This document shows, in pieces, positions 1 through 11,310 of a stretch of 11,526 nt of DNA. The DNA comes from a virus (taxonomy: Duplodnaviria; Heunggongvirae; Uroviricota; Caudoviricetes). Made by a program: the position numbers and the translations under genes. The notes beneath the pieces were generated by a model. It was not told the origin of the DNA. It did no database searches and saw only the letters and a list, made by a program, of their open reading frames with translations. The stretch lies in IMG/VR virus record IMGVR_UViG_2537561670_000005. The stretch is one strand, 5' to 3'. Each line of letters begins with the position of its first letter. The first letter of the stretch is position 1.

Positions 1-1242
1 ATGGCGAGAAAAACACACCCATTAACCACAGTGCAGATCAAAGCAGCCAGACCAGCGCAAAAGGAGTACACCCTGCAGGACGGCGGAGGGCTTTTTCTCC
101 TGGTCAAACCGTCTGGATCAAAACTCTGGAGATTTTCCTACTACCGACCATCGGACAAAAAAAGAATATTGCTGAGTTTTGGATCGCTTGAAGATGTTTC
201 CCTGGCTGATGCCAGAAAACGCCGTAGCGAGTACAGGACGTTAATCAGTGCCGGAACTGACCCGCAGGACCACGAGAGGCAAAAAAGAGAGACAGAGGCC
301 CGAAGACAAGGGAACACGTTCGAAAATGTGGCGGCGGCATGGTACCAGGTGAAAATCAGCCAGAATCTGGCCCCCAACACGATTAAAGACATCTGGCGTT
401 CGCTGGATAAATATGTATTCCCGTTCATCGGCAACACGCCAATAGATACCCTCACCGCCCGAAGGTTCGTTGAAGTGCTTACACCCATCAAGGAGCGCGG
501 CAACCTGGAAACACTCAAGCGGGTTTTACAGCGCGTTAATGAGGTAATGGATTACGCCGCCAACAGTGGGCTGATTGATGCCAATCCGGCTATGAATGTG
601 CGTAAGGCGTTTCCCTCACCTGTAAAAAAACATATGCCAACAATCCGCCCCGAACAGCTGCCGGAGCTTATGCAGGCTTTATCAGTATCGGCAACAGAAC
701 GGCAGACCAGATTACTGATTGAATGGCAGTTACTGACCGTAACCCGTCCCGCCGAAGCGTCATCAACGCGGTGGGATGAAATCAACCTGGACGCGAAGCA
801 ATGGACGATACCTGCCGGACGCATGAAGATGCGCAGGGATCACGTTATCCCGCTTTCCGGTCAGGCTATGGCGGTGCTGGAGGCCATGAAACCAATCAGC
901 CACCACCGCAATTACGTTTTCCCAAGTCTGAAAGACCCACAGCAGCCGATGAACAGCCAGACAGCTAACGCAGCATTGCGGCGTATGGGATTCGCTGGCG
1001 TGCTGGTGTCTCATGGATTACGCGCCATATTCAGCACAGCAGCGAACGAGGAAGGATTCGAGCCGGACGTAATAGAGGCGGCACTTGCCCACGTCGACAC
1101 CAACGAAGTTAGACGGGCATACAACCGGAGCAACTACATAGAAAAACGCATCGTGCTGATGCGCTGGTGGGGCGAATTTGTCGAGGCTGCGGCGACGGGC
1201 GTAACCCTCGCCAGTGGTAAAAGGGGTATCCGAGCCGTGTAG
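1..1242 (+). CDS. int: Tyrosine recombinase, P4-type integrase (site-specific integrase of a satellite/island)
   Basis: 413-aa ORF starting at the window edge. N-terminus (AARP..Y.L.DGGGL.LLVKPSGSK.WRF.Y) is typical of the P4 integrase arm-binding domain; C-terminal catalytic signature HGLRA and the tyrosine in RRAYNRSNY are present. True start could lie upstream of the window. Confidence 0.93.
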   Translation: MARKTHPLTTVQIKAARPAQKEYTLQDGGGLFLLVKPSGSKLWRFSYYRPSDKKRILLSFGSLEDVSLADARKRRSEYRTLISAGTDPQDHERQKRETEARRQGNTFENVAAAWYQVKISQNLAPNTIKDIWRSLDKYVFPFIGNTPIDTLTARRFVEVLTPIKERGNLETLKRVLQRVNEVMDYAANSGLIDANPAMNVRKAFPSPVKKHMPTIRPEQLPELMQALSVSATERQTRLLIEWQLLTVTRPAEASSTRWDEINLDAKQWTIPAGRMKMRRDHVIPLSGQAMAVLEAMKPISHHRNYVFPSLKDPQQPMNSQTANAALRRMGFAGVLVSHGLRAIFSTAANEEGFEPDVIEAALAHVDTNEVRRAYNRSNYIEKRIVLMRWWGEFVEAAATGVTLASGKRGIRAV

Positions 1243-1944: not shown

Positions 1945-2092
1945 CGGGTATCACAGATATGACAAACACGAAAAAAGCGGCCCCGATATGGAGCCGCCTT
2001 TCTGAACAATTAACCCGCTGCGCCTTATGTGTATATGATCCCAAACATAAGCACGGGGATGATAGCCGCTATCAGGCTGGTGGGCAATGCAA

Positions 2093-2266
2093 TCAGTCTG
2101 GTTCAGTTCGTTGCCATACCTGCAATGAGCGCTTTTCCCTGTATTCTTTAAGGAATTGCTCAAGGGCAAAAGCACATGGCGCGAATCTTTCTGATTCATG
2201 CTCTATCTTTCTGCGCCGTCTTTTCCGTGCCGGTGATAATGTTTTGGTCAATTCTTTATCGGTCAT
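2093..2266 (-). CDS. Hypothetical small basic protein (57 aa from internal ATG; 62 aa from ATG at 2281)
   Basis: ORF 42 nt downstream of the RHH gene on the same strand; AGGA 10-13 nt upstream of the ATG at 2266; contains a KRRRRK stretch. Weak support, overlaps an antisense open frame. Confidence 0.25.
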   Translation of the reverse strand: MTDKELTKTLSPARKRRRRKIEHESERFAPCAFALEQFLKEYREKRSLQVWQRTEPD

Positions 2267-2323
2267 TGTGTTGTCCTGCATAGCAATGCGCCGTAATACC
2301 TTACACCACGGCGCTGATGGTGA

Positions 2324-2629
2324 TTACTCTGGTTCTTTGGTCTTGCGGCGCTGGAGTTCTTCACGTGCGACAGTGACGAGCTGCCCGATCTCCTCGGCGG
2401 CTTTGATTCCGAGTTTTTCCACCTGCGCCAGTGCATCGTGCGAAGAAATCAGGGGGTTTTCTCCGCTTCCTTCTGCCTGGCGGCGGGCGATTTCACCGCG
2501 CATGGCGGTTACTATGAATCCGGCGTTGCTTTCACCGTCCAGTTTTACGGATTCCATGCCTTCAATAACATCATGCGGGATCCGAGCTGTCAGTGATTGT
2601 GATTTTGCGTTTTTTGAACCTGTAGCCAT
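2324..2629 (-). CDS. Ribbon-helix-helix (Arc/CopG-like) DNA-binding protein, putative repressor of the early operon
   Basis: ATG at 2629 with GAGAGGA RBS 7 nt upstream (101 aa; the track start at 2644 is a TTG). N-terminal beta-strand/helix/helix pattern SLTARIPHDVIEGMESVKLDGESNAGFIVTAMRGEIARR. Divergent from the early operon with palindromes in between. Confidence 0.75.
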   Translation of the reverse strand: MATGSKNAKSQSLTARIPHDVIEGMESVKLDGESNAGFIVTAMRGEIARRQAEGSGENPLISSHDALAQVEKLGIKAAEEIGQLVTVAREELQRRKTKEPE

Positions 2630-2650
2630 CTGTAATCCTCTCAATGAAAG

Positions 2651-2745
2651 TGTAAGACAATATACACATAAAAAGTCTTACATAAAAGCATTGACATGTA
2701 AGCCACCTATAAATAAAGTTACTTACACCTTGTTAATGCAAGGTG
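2651..2745. promoter_or_regulatory. Divergent promoter/operator region between RHH regulator and early operon
   Basis: Inverted repeats TGTAAGAC (2651-2658) / GTCTTACA (2675-2682) and CACCTTG (2726-2732) / CAAGGTG (2739-2745); a further TGTAAG half-site at 2697; candidate rightward promoter TTGACA (2691-2696)-N17-TAAAGT (2714-2719). Confidence 0.5.
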
Positions 2746-2825
2746 CAGAAACGACGAAACCCCGCACTGTAGGAGCAGTAACGGGGCTTCTAACCACCAA
2801 CGATAGCAAGATTATCGAGGCAGCT

Positions 2826-3026
2826 ATGAGAAATTATACCATACACCCGCAAGGGCGGGACTCGTACAACCTGAATAAATACATCTGGCGTTTTATCGCC
2901 CTGAGCACGGCACAACCGCGCGTGATTACCATCGAGGCCACCAGCGAACAGGAAGCGCGTCAGCAATCTCCGGCTGGCTGCGTGATGGTATTTGCTGCCC
3001 GTATTCGTCAGGGGGTAGGCTTATGA
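2826..3026 (+). CDS. Small protein (66 aa), possibly Icd-like host cell-division inhibitor family
   Basis: ATG at 2826 with GAGG RBS at 2817-2820; stop overlaps the next start (ATGA). The motif pattern ...YIWRFIAL...SEQEARQ...VMVFAARIRQ resembles what I recall of Icd-like proteins found next to AlpA/primase in P4-like islands; family assignment unverified. Confidence 0.6.
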   Translation: MRNYTIHPQGRDSYNLNKYIWRFIALSTAQPRVITIEATSEQEARQQSPAGCVMVFAARIRQGVGL

Positions 3027-3918: not shown

Positions 3919-4218
3919 ATGAAACTTAAATATTCTGGCTTAACTGCCAGTGGCAACACTCACCCTAAATTTACGCGCGGCGATATTTACCGCGACCAGT
4001 ACGGCGGCACGGTAATGATTAAGGGCGTGGCGGGACGGTGCGTAACTTACCGCCGTGAAGGTTACGAATATGATTGCGTGATGCCTGTTTATCAGTTCCG
4101 GCGTGATTTTTCTCTGGTACAGACCGCGCCGCATAACGTGCCCACCAGCAACGCCAGGGCACGGGCAAACATCCAGAAGCTGAAAACCATGATTAACGGA
4201 TTCAGGGGTAAAAAATGA
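3919..4218 (+). CDS. Hypothetical protein (99 aa), early operon, immediately upstream of and coupled to primase
   Basis: ATG at 3919 with GGAGA RBS at 3905-3909; stop overlaps the primase start (ATGA at 4215-4218). Confidence 0.65.
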   Translation: MKLKYSGLTASGNTHPKFTRGDIYRDQYGGTVMIKGVAGRCVTYRREGYEYDCVMPVYQFRRDFSLVQTAPHNVPTSNARARANIQKLKTMINGFRGKK

Positions 4219-5969
4219 AACTGGCACCGAACGTAAAACAGCAGTCACGCGGCATAAAACACAAAGGAACAGAAGTCATTATTTTTGCGGGTAGTGATGC
4301 CTGGGCACACGCGAAACAATGGCAGGAACATGATGCGCGTATGGCCGGAGATAATGAGCCTCCTGTGTGGCTTGGGGAGCAGCAGTTATCAGAACTGGAT
4401 AAGCTGCAAATTGTGCCGGAAGGCAGAAAATCCGTGCGCATATTCAGGGCCGGATATCTTGCGCCAGTAATGATAAAGGCGATTGGTCAGAAGCTGGCGG
4501 CGGCAGGCGTACAGGATGCAAATTTTTACCCTGATGGTATGCACGGTCAGAAGGTGGAGAACTGGCGCGAATATCTGGCCCGTGAGCGCCAGAATCTTTC
4601 TGATGGTCTGGTCATTGAGCTTCCGGTAAAGCAAAAGGCGCAACTTTCGCAGATGGCGGACAGTGAGCGCGCGCAGCTGCTTGCCGATCGCTTTGATGGC
4701 GTTTGCGTACATCCTGAAAGTGAAATCGTTCACGTATGGCGCGGCGGGGTATGGTGTCCGGTCAGCACAATGGAACTTAGCCGCGAAATGGTGGCGATCT
4801 ATTCAGAGCACAGGGCCACTTTCAGCAAGCGCGTAATCAATAACGCCGTGGAAGCGTTAAAAGTTATTGCCGAACCAATGGGCGAGCCGTCCGGCGATTT
4901 GCTGCCGTTCGCCAATGGTGCGCTTGACCTGAAAACGGGGGAATTTTCCCCGCACACGCCGGAGAACTGGATCACCACGCACAACGGCATTGAGTACACG
5001 CCACCAGCACCAGGGGAGAACATCCGCGATAACGCGCCAAACTTTCATAAATGGCTTGAGCACGCAGCCGGAAAAGACCCGCGCAAGATGATGCGTATAT
5101 GTGCCGCGCTGTACATGATTATGGCGAACCGGTACGACTGGCAGATGTTTATTGAGGCCACCGGAGACGGCGGGAGCGGTAAAAGTACATTCACACACAT
5201 AGCCAGCCTTCTGGCAGGGAAACAAAACACGGTAAGCGCTGAAATGACATCGCTTGATGATGCTGGTGGGCGTGCGCAGGTTGTCGGGAGTCGTCTTATC
5301 GTCCTGGCAGACCAGCCGAAATATACAGGCGAAGGAACGGGCATCAAGAAAATCACGGGCGGCGACCCCGTGGAAATTAACCCGAAATATGAAAAGCGTT
5401 TTACGGCGGTAATCAGGGCGGTGGTGCTGGCAACCAATAACAATCCGATGATATTCACCGAACGGGCCGGAGGTGTGGCACGTCGTCGGGTGATATTCCG
5501 GTTCGATAACATCGTAAGCGAGGCAGAAAAAGACAGGGAGCTACCGGAAAAGATCGCGGCTGAAATCCCTGTCATTATCCGCCGCTTGCTGGCGAACTTT
5601 GCCGACCCTGAAAAGGCACGGGCTTTACTCATTGAACAGCGTGACGGTGATGAAGCACTGGCAATAAAGCAACAGACGGATCCGGTTATTGAGTTTTGCC
5701 AGTTCCTGAATTTTCTGGAGGAAGCACGCGGCCTGATGATGGGCGGCGGTGGCGATTCAGTGAAGTACACGACCAGAAACAGCCTTTACCGCGTCTATCT
5801 GGCGTTTATGGCGTACGCAGGCAGGAGCAAACCGCTAAACGTAAATGACTTTGGCAAGGCTATGAAGCCAGCCGCGAAAGTTTACGGACATGAATATATT
5901 ACGCGGAAAGTTAAAGGAGTAACGCAGACTAACGCAATAACAACAGACGATTGCGACGCGTTTTTATAA
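4215..5969 (+). CDS. P4-family phage/plasmid primase-helicase (D5_N-like region plus SF3-type NTPase), replication initiator
   Basis: 584-aa ORF; Walker A GDGGSGKST (nt ~5163-5189), Walker B-like RLIVLADQP, and a D5-N-like stretch (FANGALDLKTGEFSPHTPENWITTHNGIEY). Followed directly by an iteron array, as for PICI pri-rep/ori. Confidence 0.93.
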   Translation: MKLAPNVKQQSRGIKHKGTEVIIFAGSDAWAHAKQWQEHDARMAGDNEPPVWLGEQQLSELDKLQIVPEGRKSVRIFRAGYLAPVMIKAIGQKLAAAGVQDANFYPDGMHGQKVENWREYLARERQNLSDGLVIELPVKQKAQLSQMADSERAQLLADRFDGVCVHPESEIVHVWRGGVWCPVSTMELSREMVAIYSEHRATFSKRVINNAVEALKVIAEPMGEPSGDLLPFANGALDLKTGEFSPHTPENWITTHNGIEYTPPAPGENIRDNAPNFHKWLEHAAGKDPRKMMRICAALYMIMANRYDWQMFIEATGDGGSGKSTFTHIASLLAGKQNTVSAEMTSLDDAGGRAQVVGSRLIVLADQPKYTGEGTGIKKITGGDPVEINPKYEKRFTAVIRAVVLATNNNPMIFTERAGGVARRRVIFRFDNIVSEAEKDRELPEKIAAEIPVIIRRLLANFADPEKARALLIEQRDGDEALAIKQQTDPVIEFCQFLNFLEEARGLMMGGGGDSVKYTTRNSLYRVYLAFMAYAGRSKPLNVNDFGKAMKPAAKVYGHEYITRKVKGVTQTNAITTDDCDAFL

Positions 5970-5982
5970 TTTGTTGCAATGG

Positions 5983-6208
5983 CTGTCTACCCTGTCTACC
6001 TGAGTAAAGAAAAATACATTTAATTCAGTGCATTAAGTTAGGTAGATAGCCTTTTTTTACTGTCTACCCACTATCTACCCTCTCTACCTGATTTTACCTG
6101 AATCAGACAGGGAGGTAGACACGGGGTAGATAGTGGATAAAAGCACTCTACCCCGCTGAAAGCCGCGCCATTACTGGCATGAGGGCCACTAAGGTAGATA
6201 GGTAGACA
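5983..6208. repeat. Iteron-type replication origin (about 12 copies of YCTACC / GGTAGA in both orientations flanking an AT-rich stretch)
   Basis: Tandem CTGTCTACC at 5983-5991 and 5992-6000; CTGTCTACCC 6060-6069; CTATCTACCC 6071-6080; TCTCTACC 6081-6088; CTCTACCCC 6146-6154; inverted GGTAGATAG 6041-6049, GGTAGACA 6114-6121, GGTAGATAG 6125-6133, GGTAGATAGGTAGACA 6193-6208; AT-rich 6001-6040. Confidence 0.75.
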
Positions 6209-6256
6209 AGGGGAGGCACAACTCAAAACTTTTTAAACGAGGGGGTAAAAATAAAT

Positions 6257-6535
6257 ATGCACACTTCAGGGAAATTTAATAAATCACTCAAAAAACGCAG
6301 AGACAGAACAGAACCGAAATATCGCGCGTTAGACATGACAGAGCACGCTTTAAAGGTGGCAATCAGAACGATAGACCGACACGTAGGGGAAGGATACGCG
6401 AAGGAACATCCCGACCTGATAAGCGCATTCATGACCACAGCAGCGGCAAACTTTGCCACGCTGACAGAACGGGAGATTGCCGAAGCGGAACAGGTAACAA
6501 CCATCAACGTTAAAACCGGAGAGGTGGAATCATGA
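6257..6535 (+). CDS. Hypothetical protein (92 aa), translationally coupled to ssb
   Basis: ATG at 6257 with GAGGGGG RBS at 6239-6245; stop overlaps the ssb start (ATGA at 6532-6535). No recognisable family. Confidence 0.55.
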   Translation: MHTSGKFNKSLKKRRDRTEPKYRALDMTEHALKVAIRTIDRHVGEGYAKEHPDLISAFMTTAAANFATLTEREIAEAEQVTTINVKTGEVES

Positions 6536-6954
6536 CAGCACAGATAGCCGCTTACGGGCGGCTGGTGGACGACCCGCAGGTAAAACAGACCAGCAAGGGC
6601 ACACCGATGACGCTGGCGCGTATGGCGGTCCCCCTTCCGTGCAGCCAGGCAGATGACGGAACGGCGACGATGTGGTTATCCGTCCTGGCATTTGGCAGAC
6701 AGGCCGAAGCACTGGAAAGGCACCGCAAGGGTGAACTCCTGAGCGTGGCGGGTAACATGCAGATCAGCCAGTGGACTGGGCAGAACGGAGAAACGCGGCA
6801 GGGCTGGCAGGTTATCGCAGACAGTGTAATCAGTGCGCGAACGGCGCGACTGGGCGGCAAAAAAGGTCAACAGGGCCAGGCTACTGACGCGCTGAACAGG
6901 GCAAAACAACAGGCGGGGAATGATGATCCGTACGGGGATAACATACCGTTTTAA
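6532..6954 (+). CDS. ssb: Single-stranded DNA-binding protein (short phage/plasmid-type SSB)
   Basis: 140-aa ORF with GGAGAGGTGG RBS; OB-fold pattern comparable to E. coli SSB (G.L..DP..., W..V.AFG..AE......KG....V.G.......W); Gly/Gln-rich linker and canonical acidic C-terminal tail ...DDPYGDNIPF. Confidence 0.9.
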   Translation: MTAQIAAYGRLVDDPQVKQTSKGTPMTLARMAVPLPCSQADDGTATMWLSVLAFGRQAEALERHRKGELLSVAGNMQISQWTGQNGETRQGWQVIADSVISARTARLGGKKGQQGQATDALNRAKQQAGNDDPYGDNIPF

Positions 6955-9432: not shown

Positions 9433-9510
9433 GCGGGTCCTTCCTGGAATTATGGCCCGTTACGGGGCGGCGACCTCGCGGTTTTTCGCTATTTATGAGC
9501 TTTTTCAGGG
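9433..9510 (+). other. Lambda-type cos site 2 (cosQ + cosN, plus orientation, cosB truncated)
   Basis: gcgggtccttcctgg ... ttacGGGCGGCGACCTcgcggtttttcgctatttatgag matches the recalled lambda right-end/left-end junction (cgggtcctttccgg...ttacg|GGGCGGCGACCTcgcgggttttcgctatttatgaaaa); the 12-nt cohesive-end sequence is at 9465-9476. Downstream sequence diverges from lambda R sites. Confidence 0.8.
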
Positions 9511-9609: not shown

Positions 9610-10152
9610 ATGAAATCGCACCTGATGAACAAAAAAAACATGGCGAAAAGCTGCCGTGTAAGTGCGACAGCGTTCGACAAGTGGGGAGTGACTCCCGTTG
9701 AACGTAAAGGCCGTGAGGCGTTTTACGATGTTGCCAGCGTGATAGACAATAGGGTTAACAATGCAATTAGCCAGCTTACAAACGACAAAGGCGATATTGA
9801 TGATGATGAACTCTTACGAGTCAGGATCAGATTACTGACAGCACAGGCGGAGGCGCAGGAACTTAAAAACGAGCGCGATCGCGGTGACGTGATTGATACT
9901 GAGTTTTGCCTGTACGCGCTTTCAAAGCTGGCGAGTCAGATTTCATCAATCATGGACAGCCTCCCGCTTACTATGCAAAGGAGCTTCCCACAGATTACCC
10001 CCGCCATGCTGGATAGGCTTAAAAGGGAAGTGGTTAAAGCCTGTAATGCCAGTGCCAGAGTTGCCGACAACCTCCCACAGATACTGGCTGATTACTTGAA
10101 AGAAACAACCGGAAACGTACCGGAAAAGTTGCTACAGAAGAAAGGCGAGTAA
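9610..10152 (+). CDS. Terminase small subunit, lambda Nu1-like (start uncertain: 9610, 9625 or 9640)
   Basis: 180-aa ORF; strong similarity to recalled lambda Nu1: LTAQAEAQELKNERDRGDVIDTEFCLYALSKLASQISSIMDSLPLTMQRSFP vs RLTRAQADAQELKNARDSAEVVETAFCTFVLSRIAGEIASILDGLPLSVQRRFP; the N-terminus MNKKNMAK... (from 9625) parallels MEVNKKQLA..., and FYDVASVI parallels LYDSAAVI. Weak RBS at all candidate starts. Confidence 0.9.
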   Translation: MKSHLMNKKNMAKSCRVSATAFDKWGVTPVERKGREAFYDVASVIDNRVNNAISQLTNDKGDIDDDELLRVRIRLLTAQAEAQELKNERDRGDVIDTEFCLYALSKLASQISSIMDSLPLTMQRSFPQITPAMLDRLKREVVKACNASARVADNLPQILADYLKETTGNVPEKLLQKKGE

Positions 10153-10169
10153 CAGACGCGCAATTATTG

Positions 10170-10378
10170 AACAAAACTGAGAAACGACATGAAAGCGTCA
10201 TAAATCGCCATTTTAGATGATTACCGTGTCGTTTCTTTTTATTGTGTATCTATTTAAAAACAAATAGTTATGTTCGAGAAGTACCGACATGCTTTTTCCA
10301 GAAAAATTTTCATAAACAGATAAAAACCGCGAGGTCGCCGCCCCGTAACGGGTCCATAATTCCAGGAAGGACCCGACG
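10170..10378 (-). other. Lambda-type cos site 3 (cosQ + cosN + cosB-like R elements), minus orientation
   Basis: The reverse complement reads cgggtccttcctggaattatggacccgttacGGGCGGCGACCTcgcggtttttatctgtttatgaaaatttttctgg...ataactatttgtttttaaatag...aaaagaaacgacacgg...tgtcgtttctcagttttg, colinear with recalled lambda cosQ-cosN-cosB (tttatgaaaattttccgg, ataacttaatgtttttatttaaaa, aaaggaaacgacagg, tgtcgtttcctttctctgtttttg). Confidence 0.8.
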
Positions 10379-10863: not shown

Positions 10864-11283
10864 CAGCCATTGGCGTAATCCGGCGCGGTAACTTGCTGAA
10901 CTTAAAGCAAAGCGCAAAATTGCGCTGGCTGGTGGGCATGATGCCGATATGGTGATCCCCATAACGGAAATATCCACCAGCACGGCAACGGCAGAATAGC
11001 CACAACACAGAAAAACCACGAATATGGGGTTTTTGTTATGGCATGGGCATGATGACCGCCCCTGCTCTGAATGGTGGAAATCACCACGCAGATCATCCAC
11101 CAGCTTCGTTTTTATAAATTAAACATCCGGGAAAATCCGACCCTGAATTGTGCATTTTTTCAGCAAATCATTTTAGTTATACGTTTGGTTATACGGTTTA
11201 AAAGTTGAATCATATACATTATTTTAAATCATGAAGTTACACGCTCAATTAAACTACTCTCGTGGACCAAAAATCCCAAGAAA

Positions 11284-11310
11284 ACCAACCTATTGCGGTT
11301 GGTTTTTTTA
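11284..11310. terminator. Intrinsic terminator-like hairpin near the right junction (probably bidirectional)
   Basis: AACCAACC-tattgc-GGTTGGTT followed by a T-run on the plus strand and preceded by AAAA (a T-run on the minus strand); lies between the element and the convergent flanking gene. Confidence 0.5.

Follow-up and report, generated by a model that had tools for sequence, protein, structure and literature searches.

The iteron array directly 3' of the pri-rep gene, at positions 5983–6209 of the 11,526-nt stretch of viral DNA analysed here (referred to as the window), is, taken as a whole, very probably the vegetative origin of a lambda-dependent E. coli PICI of the EcCICFT073 family. 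The origin call itself is already known. The island has been catalogued, and an origin that is 98 % identical to this one, with an initiator that is 99.7 % identical, has been tested by others in cis and in trans, which bears out the likely origin proposed in an earlier sequence-only reading of this DNA. The only possibly new item is a conserved 23-nt box that is embedded in the array.

Eleven iterons form a single imperfect dyad 3' of pri-rep

TCTACC/GGTAGA was found in 11 exact copies when both strands of the window were counted, none of them outside 5986–6206. Six are on the plus strand (5986, 5995, 6063, 6074, 6083 and 6147), and the minus strand has the other five (6041, 6114, 6125, 6193 and 6201). 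Dinucleotide-preserving shuffles of the whole window contained 2.46 copies on average and at most 7, compared with the 11 observed. When the shuffle mean was scaled to 221 nt, 0.047 copies were expected, and the Poisson probability of finding 11 or more was 6e-23. The sequence-only reading had described about a dozen copies of a YCTACC core in both orientations, and this number is reached with the 11 exact copies and two one-mismatch copies (TTTACC at 6093 on the plus strand and at 6244 on the minus strand). Its coordinates were accurate, with the array directly 3' of the 4215–5969 gene, and its two perfect tandem units (CTGTCTACC at 5983–5991 and 5992–6000) and AT-rich core (6002–6040, 77 % AT) were both recovered. 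Only the degenerate first base has to be given up: all 11 copies have the T form, while the C form was found just twice in the window (CCTACC at 3014 and 7912), on both occasions outside the array. As YCTACC adds no copies inside the array, the real core is TCTACC. In their own orientation the copies mostly read CT(G/A)TCTACC(C/T), giving an extended form of CTRTCTACC.

The array starts 14 nt past the Pri-Rep stop codon (5967–5969) and is, as a whole, one large imperfect dyad (inverted repeats I1 and I2; Table 1) with its centre near 6100. Start-to-start spacings of the cores are symmetric, being 9, 46, 22, 11 and 9 nt in the left arm, 31 nt across the centre and 11, 22, 46 and 8 nt in the right arm, and the orientations of the cores are + + - + + + and - - + - -, respectively. 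In the left arm, the AT-rich tract makes up the 46-nt spacer; its AT content compares with 50 % for the whole window, and a T-run follows further on. The corresponding right-arm spacer is GC-rich (41 % AT) and holds the conserved box. Iterons at 5983–6001 and 6041–6089 flank the AT-rich tract, with more sets extending up to 6209.

Table 1. Features of the initiator gene, the array and its surroundings (positions are those of the window)
Feature	Position	Strand	Remarks
Pri-Rep initiator gene, 584 aa	4215–5969	+	Pfam, PHROGs; TIGR01613 'phage/plasmid primase, P4 family'
Pri-Rep domains: N-terminal, aa 1–150; D5_N, 153–282; DUF5906 SF3-type P-loop helicase, 316–417; Pox_D5, 487–575			
Predicted winged-helix origin-binding domain, likely iteron reader, codons 488–576	5676–5942	+	phmmer to PDB 1KA8
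Segment removed in EcCICFT073 pri-delta-ori, window equivalent	5974–6279		Mapped primers; 306 nt
Iteron pair 1: two tandem CTGTCTACC units, cores 5986–5991 and 5995–6000	5983–6001	+	Cores invariant in 8 alleles
AT-rich tract, candidate DNA-unwinding element	6002–6040		77 % AT; sequence drifts among alleles, AT-richness kept
Single inverted iteron GGTAGATAG, then T-run 6050–6059	6041–6049	-	
Three direct iterons, cores 6063, 6074 and 6083, spacing 11 and 9	6060–6089	+	
Central spacer, dyad centre; short inverted repeat CCTCTCTACCTGATT / AATCAGACAGGGAGG	6090–6112		Inverted repeats I1, I2 and I8
Two inverted iterons, cores 6114 and 6125	6113–6133	-	
Single direct iteron CACTCTACCC	6144–6153	+	
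Non-iteron box GCTGAAAGCCGCGCCATTACTGG, core 16-mer GCCGCGCCATTACTGG at 6162–6177	6155–6177	+	In 46-nt spacer mirroring AT-rich spacer
Terminal inverted iteron pair GGTAGATAGGTAGACAA, cores 6193 and 6201	6193–6209	-	
Leader and Shine-Dalgarno AAAACTTTTTAAACGAGGGGGTAAAAATAAAT of next gene, conserved	6224–6256	+	Probably translational; inside tested ori segment
Small conserved ORF (92 aa, phrog_1231) and SSB (140 aa), rest of replication module	6257–6954	+	

The window is a catalogued chromosomal island

A chromosomal island of ~11.3 kb, present in two E. coli strains (Nissle 1917 and ATCC 25922), was 100 % identical to the window; its insertion site is a tRNA-Pro gene, with yejM and narP on either side. 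This island is EcCIATCC25922 (CP009072.1:106749–118031; Table S1 of PMC6092414), and the match found in CP009072.1, at 112735–113135, falls within it. Related gap sequence was found in about 507 of 5,426 complete E. coli genomes.

The genes are arranged in the order integrase, small alpA-like HTH regulator, Icd-like genes, DUF4222, pri-rep, gap and small ORF, followed by SSB, lambda-E-type capsid, lambda-D-type decoration and Nu1-type small terminase genes. A unidirectional int–alpA–pri-rep order, no tail or lysis genes and a size of ~10–20 kb are the marks of Gram-negative PICIs and were all found here; the organisation is that described for these elements by Fillol-Salom et al. 2018 (PMC6092414). 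The pair formed by the 92-aa ORF and SSB is also located 3' of the origin in EcCICFT073 and in most alleles. Two exact lambda cosN-like 12-mers, GGGCGGCGACCT, are present in opposite orientation at 9465–9476 (+) and 10332–10343 (-), flanking the Nu1-like TerS gene, in agreement with the two cos sites that have been published for EcCICFT073.

Elsewhere in the island, a mechanically listed 355-aa ORF (1959–3026, +) is probably not one gene. RefSeq annotates this region as an Icd-like pseudogene fragment, an opposite-strand YlcI/YnfO gene (2324–2644, -) and a short Icd-like gene, and the AT skew changes sign over 2100–2600.

A near-identical origin has been tested in EcCICFT073

The initiator of EcCICFT073 (strain CFT073, locus L003) and that of the window were identical at 582 of 584 residues. 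The 288-nt gap of EcCICFT073 was 98 % identical to that of the window (304 columns), differing by six substitutions and one 1-nt indel, and all 11 TCTACC cores were kept in register. Gene order is the same in the two islands, as are the number of iterons and the places of the AT-rich tract and the box.

Replication of this twin element has been examined by others. A pri-ori fragment of EcCICFT073 kept a thermosensitive plasmid at 44 °C while its delta-pri derivative did not, and the delta-ori derivative gave 'significantly reduced' colony numbers, a result that is not stated as abolition (PMC6092414). The ends of the constructs were mapped here from the primers in the supplementary table of that paper. 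Both constructs begin at L003:9198, with the pri-ori fragment corresponding to L003:9198–11307. Primer rep-3c matches window positions 5953–5973 (L003 10980–11000), and the delta-ori clone ends at L003:11000, equivalent to window position 5973; primer rep-2c, whose stored text is 1 base off the genome, matches L003 ~11287–11307, the end of the full clone. The deleted 'ori' (Table 1) is larger than the array: it holds the entire array together with the conserved box and the leader of the next gene. A later preprint describes a cosmid in which the p15A origin was swapped for 'that of a PICI' and which was kept only when the CFT073 primase (AAN79964), supplied in trans from a second plasmid, was induced (bioRxiv 10.1101/2022.09.30.509847). 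This is the very replication test that had been put forward from the sequence, carried out by others on a near-identical pair.

The two islands differ outside the replicon. EcCICFT073 is located in the roxA-phoQ region, in contrast to the tRNA-Pro site of the island of the window, which also lacks the PerC gene of EcCICFT073. At the place where the window encodes a 180-aa Nu1-like TerS (9610–10152), EcCICFT073 encodes the 144-aa RppA (L003:14660–15094), and no BLASTP similarity was detected between these two proteins (E 1.4). This indicates that the packaging-redirection module differs despite a near-identical replicon.

The iteron word covaries with the C-terminal domain of the initiator

Residues 488–576 of Pri-Rep matched PDB 1KA8, the C-terminal domain of P4 alpha (phmmer, E 1.1e-6), which we take to be the winged-helix origin-binding domain that binds P4 type-1 iterons. 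The helicase core matched PDB 7OLA/7OM0 (E 4e-15), presumably the Pri-Rep of SaPI5. In contrast to this clear helicase, no primase domain was detectable, so that only the second half of the earlier term 'primase-helicase' stands. Residues 1–160 had no Pfam matches even at E <= 10, and no significant fold was obtained for the N-terminus, where the best Foldseek match in the PDB (E 0.026, generic alpha/beta folds) came from a poor single-sequence AlphaFold model with a pLDDT of 61. Judged by these searches, the 'primase' label is an annotation that is neither demonstrated nor detectable as a domain. Among alleles, the N-terminal domain (window 4215–4664) varied more than any other part of the protein, with 47–78 % identity compared with 94–98 % for the helicase. 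It recurs in contig L061, fused to an AAA_25 ATPase in place of the SF3 helicase, and this indicates that it is a separable module.

A phylogenetic footprint was obtained from eight alleles, among them seven that were added to EcCICFT073, with gaps that were 77–95 % identical and primases that were 80–98 % identical. TCTACC was the top 6-mer of the gap in each allele (9–11 copies) and was hardly found elsewhere in the loci. In the 8-allele alignment, identity to the window was 94 % in iteron-core columns and 73 % in the remainder of the gap. Immediately 5' of the core, three bases vary in concert, being CTG/CTA in the window and CCC/CCT in three of the alleles (L007–L009). The C-terminal domains were 93–97 % identical among alleles whose 5' bases differ, which suggests that the hexamer is the constrained part, the length of the recognised word being only approximate. 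In two of the alleles (L007 and L008), the array is still attached to the primase gene, although neither small ORF nor SSB is annotated there and the next gene is ~970 nt away. The array thus stays with the primase gene even when the genes that follow are different, which supports its reading as an origin.

A homologue search with the window primase returned only E. coli copies of at least 99 % identity and was replaced by a scan of species-representative genomes, in which 34 Pri-Rep relatives were found. A close relative in Shigella (L011) has kept 11 copies of TCTACC. Three distant relatives have an array of like layout directly after the gene but with other words, namely a TGTTCACC-type word in Pectobacterium (L013:4270–4560), 11 copies of TGTTCAT in Morganella (L012:3862–4160) and seven copies of GCACTG in Aeromonas (L014). 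The Pectobacterium protein (617 aa) aligned to the window initiator over its full length with 42 % identity. The helicase core of the Morganella protein was the nearest to that of the window (59 %), while its C-terminal domain grouped with those of P4 and Pectobacterium (50 % identity to P4 and 32 % to the window) and its word is the P4-like TGTTCA. A window-like helicase is therefore combined with a P4-like C-terminal domain and a P4-like word, indicating that the word follows the C-terminal domain. In most of the P4 alpha-like relatives (770–800 aa, L015–L036), no array follows the gene directly, which would be expected of an ori located elsewhere, as in P4, and these relatives are uninformative for covariation.

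The C-terminal domain had been proposed from the sequence as the binding module, and this proposal is supported by the match to 1KA8 and by the covariation of word and domain, which encompasses only four word classes. From the phylogenetic footprint, the homology to the P4 alpha domain and this covariation, we infer that TCTACC is the word read by the initiator. A search of the literature on EcCICFT073 and on this sequence found no published binding assay, footprinting or start-site mapping.

A conserved box is shared with origins of other initiator types

The box in the right-arm spacer (Table 1) was nearly invariant across alleles, and its 16-nt core starts 196 nt past the primase stop in every primase-bearing viral contig among the matches listed. 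Exact matches to the 16-mer were found in at least 120 IMG/VR contigs (L045–L164), compared with 19 matches for a composition-matched control 16-mer. About 28 of the box matches were without surrounding repeats, a number that agrees with the 19 of the control. In the other matches the box lies between two repeat sets, and these sets represent at least ten iteron classes. For example, three copies of TTGGACAAC are present on each side of the box in one contig (L105:5070), while five copies of CATGTGCGG precede and four follow the box in another (L058:4154), with an adjoining AT-rich tract in both. The origin in these two classes is inside a Phage_rep_O-type or O-like gene that is followed by a DnaB-like helicase gene, and the same origins are found in the named phages HK75, mEp234, HK106, HK629, CUS-3 and JEP4 and in Stx2a-converting phages. 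Box-bearing arrays were also located after a Prim-Pol/PriCT_2 protein (L104) and after an AAA_25 protein (L061, in which a 467-aa ORF ends ~100 nt before the box), and the exact 16-mer is present in the Aeromonas relative (L014:4103), whose array is built from another iteron word. The box is therefore associated with at least five initiator architectures (SF3/P4-winged-helix Pri-Rep, P4 alpha-like, Prim-Pol/PriCT_2, AAA_25 ATPase and Phage_rep_O with DnaB-like helicase). It is found in coding as well as non-coding sequence, and at least two orders are represented (Enterobacterales and Aeromonadales). The orientation of the box relative to the initiator gene varies, and the AT-rich tract is 5' of the box in most but not all classes.

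The box was looked for in the lambda and P22 origins and was absent from both, indicating that it is facultative; the vicinity of P4 ori and crr had no box within 3 mismatches. No mention of the box sequence, on either strand, was found in the searchable literature, and a paper on the O protein and iterons of Stx phages concerns lambda-type iterons. Inside O genes the box reads ASNGAA and may there be subject to protein-level constraint, while the PICI and Aeromonas copies lie in non-coding DNA. We tentatively suggest that the box is an undescribed initiator-independent origin module, a proposal that we rate as possible but somewhat short of an even chance. From its distribution over initiators, contexts and orders, the simplest idea for its role would be that these origins share a host factor or have a step of initiation in common (e.g. 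priming or polymerase entry).

The 3' end of the box and the bases downstream (6172–6191) form a small palindrome, CTGGC-N5/6-GCCAG. The equivalent in EcCICFT073 (L003 ~11199–11218) reads TACTGGCATGGTGGCCAGTA, that is CTG-N10-CAG, with LexA-box-like outer bases and a GC-rich centre, while the window has CAC for CAG and the phage classes are without the palindrome. The possibility, considered by eye, that the box ends in a sigma-54 or LexA site was set aside because CTG-N10-CAG is present in EcCICFT073 and not in the window or the phage classes.

Alternative explanations for the array

Repeats of this kind could also be operators through which a transcriptional regulator controls the downstream operon (small ORF, SSB and capsid genes), since the array directly precedes the gene that starts at 6257, and the final 30 nt of the gap show conservation. 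However, a consensus scan of 5850–6350 found no sigma-70-like promoter or terminator, and the array is beside the primase gene in the two alleles (L007 and L008) that have no annotated small ORF or SSB. The finding of the same layout, with other words, after related initiator genes in other genera and the replication data for a near-identical segment make this explanation extremely unlikely, although the array may have a secondary regulatory role. P4 provides the model for another explanation, as its crr, with type-1 repeats in both orientations, is immediately 3' of alpha at a distance of 4.5 kb from ori proper, and P4 alpha shares its C-terminal domain with Pri-Rep. The array of the window would on this model be a crr-like cis enhancer or copy-control (handcuffing) element, with initiation occurring at a second site. 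This is very unlikely given that all 11 TCTACC copies of the window are in one array with no second cluster, that the array has its own AT-rich tract and that the pri-ori fragment (L003:9198–11307) supports replication alone.

A packaging (cos/pac) signal has to be considered because lambdoid helpers package the island and a cos site is needed, but the cosN-like 12-mers are at 9465–9476 and 10332–10343 and not in the array. A chance low-complexity repeat is excluded by the probability of ~6e-23, and the repeats are conserved across alleles, so that neither of these two explanations has any appreciable probability.

Several smaller candidates in the array were rejected. The sole Rfam signal for a structured RNA was a sub-threshold match to mir-135 on both strands of 6056–6137 (26.6 and 23.9 bits against a gathering threshold of 59.2), explained as an artefact of the hairpin-like iteron dyad. 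A DnaA-like box, TTATCCACT (8 of 9 positions; 6132–6140, -), is located between iterons and is probably not functional, as it was not conserved in four diverged alleles (L004, L005, L007 and L009). Neither an IHF consensus nor GATC was found in the array. An antisense ORF of 51 aa (6071–6226, TTG start) reads the box in the ASNGAAFS frame of the O genes, with no other support as a gene.

A model for initiation and comparison with other replicons

With the array as the origin, the most probable sequence of events is the one described for PICI and P4 replicons. Upon induction of the island, the C-terminal winged-helix domain of Pri-Rep would bind the eleven iterons with TCTACC cores and, as the iterons form one imperfect dyad, the protein would assemble and oligomerise on both arms of the dyad. 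The protein would then melt the AT-rich tract at 6002–6040 and self-load its SF3-type helicase there. The exposed single strands would be covered by the SSB that the island itself encodes a short distance downstream, and a host polymerase would copy the element, with host priming being possible in view of the lack of a detectable primase domain. The box at 6155–6177, in the arm opposite the AT-rich tract, is part of the origin. The pairing of the reader domain with its word, the melting site and the source of primers are what we infer here, while the need for the segment and for the protein, and the action of the protein in trans, have been shown by others on the twin element.

The C-terminal origin-binding domain of P4 alpha is homologous to that of Pri-Rep, the SF3/D5-type helicase cores are 42 % identical, and both systems have short words in both orientations immediately 3' of the initiator gene, in crr and in the array, respectively. 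However, the P4 word is TGTTCACC (annotated as type-1 repeats), whereas that of the window is (TG)TCTACC and not a type-1 iteron, and the bipartite ori and crr of P4, 4.5 kb apart, contrast with the single array of the window. P4 alpha is also longer than Pri-Rep (777 versus 584 aa); its N-terminal region is a primase domain, of which no recognisable counterpart was found in Pri-Rep. SaPI origins are similarly located immediately 3' of pri-rep, with iteron sets around an AT-rich region and an initiator that is a self-loading helicase, but they have no sequence relation to the origin of the window and the transcriptional organisation of the islands differs (PMC6092414). Lambdoid O-gene origins (HK75, mEp234, etc.) share the box core GCCGCGCCATTACTGG, which is between two phage-specific iteron sets and by an AT-rich tract. 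These origins are inside the gene, have unrelated words (TTGGACAAC and CATGTGCGG) and use Phage_rep_O with a DnaB-like helicase, while the array of the window is intergenic and its initiator is of the D5/SF3 type, so that only the box is common. The array is also unlike the DnaA-dependent iteron plasmids in the style of pSC101, R6K or P1, having one 8/9 DnaA box that is not conserved.

Implications

The primase/ori pair is already in use as a conditional replicon for non-replicating DNA payloads. To this the present analysis adds a base-level map of the origin, consisting of eleven cores in one dyad with an AT arm and a box arm, and a caution on the 'primase' label. It also supports, in silico, the view that specificity is determined by the C-terminal winged helix, which may aid the design of orthogonal primase/ori pairs, and provides the conserved box as a lead. 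If functional, the box would be a common element linking the origins of satellites and helper phages that have unrelated initiators, and could be the route by which satellites and their lambdoid helpers use one host resource.
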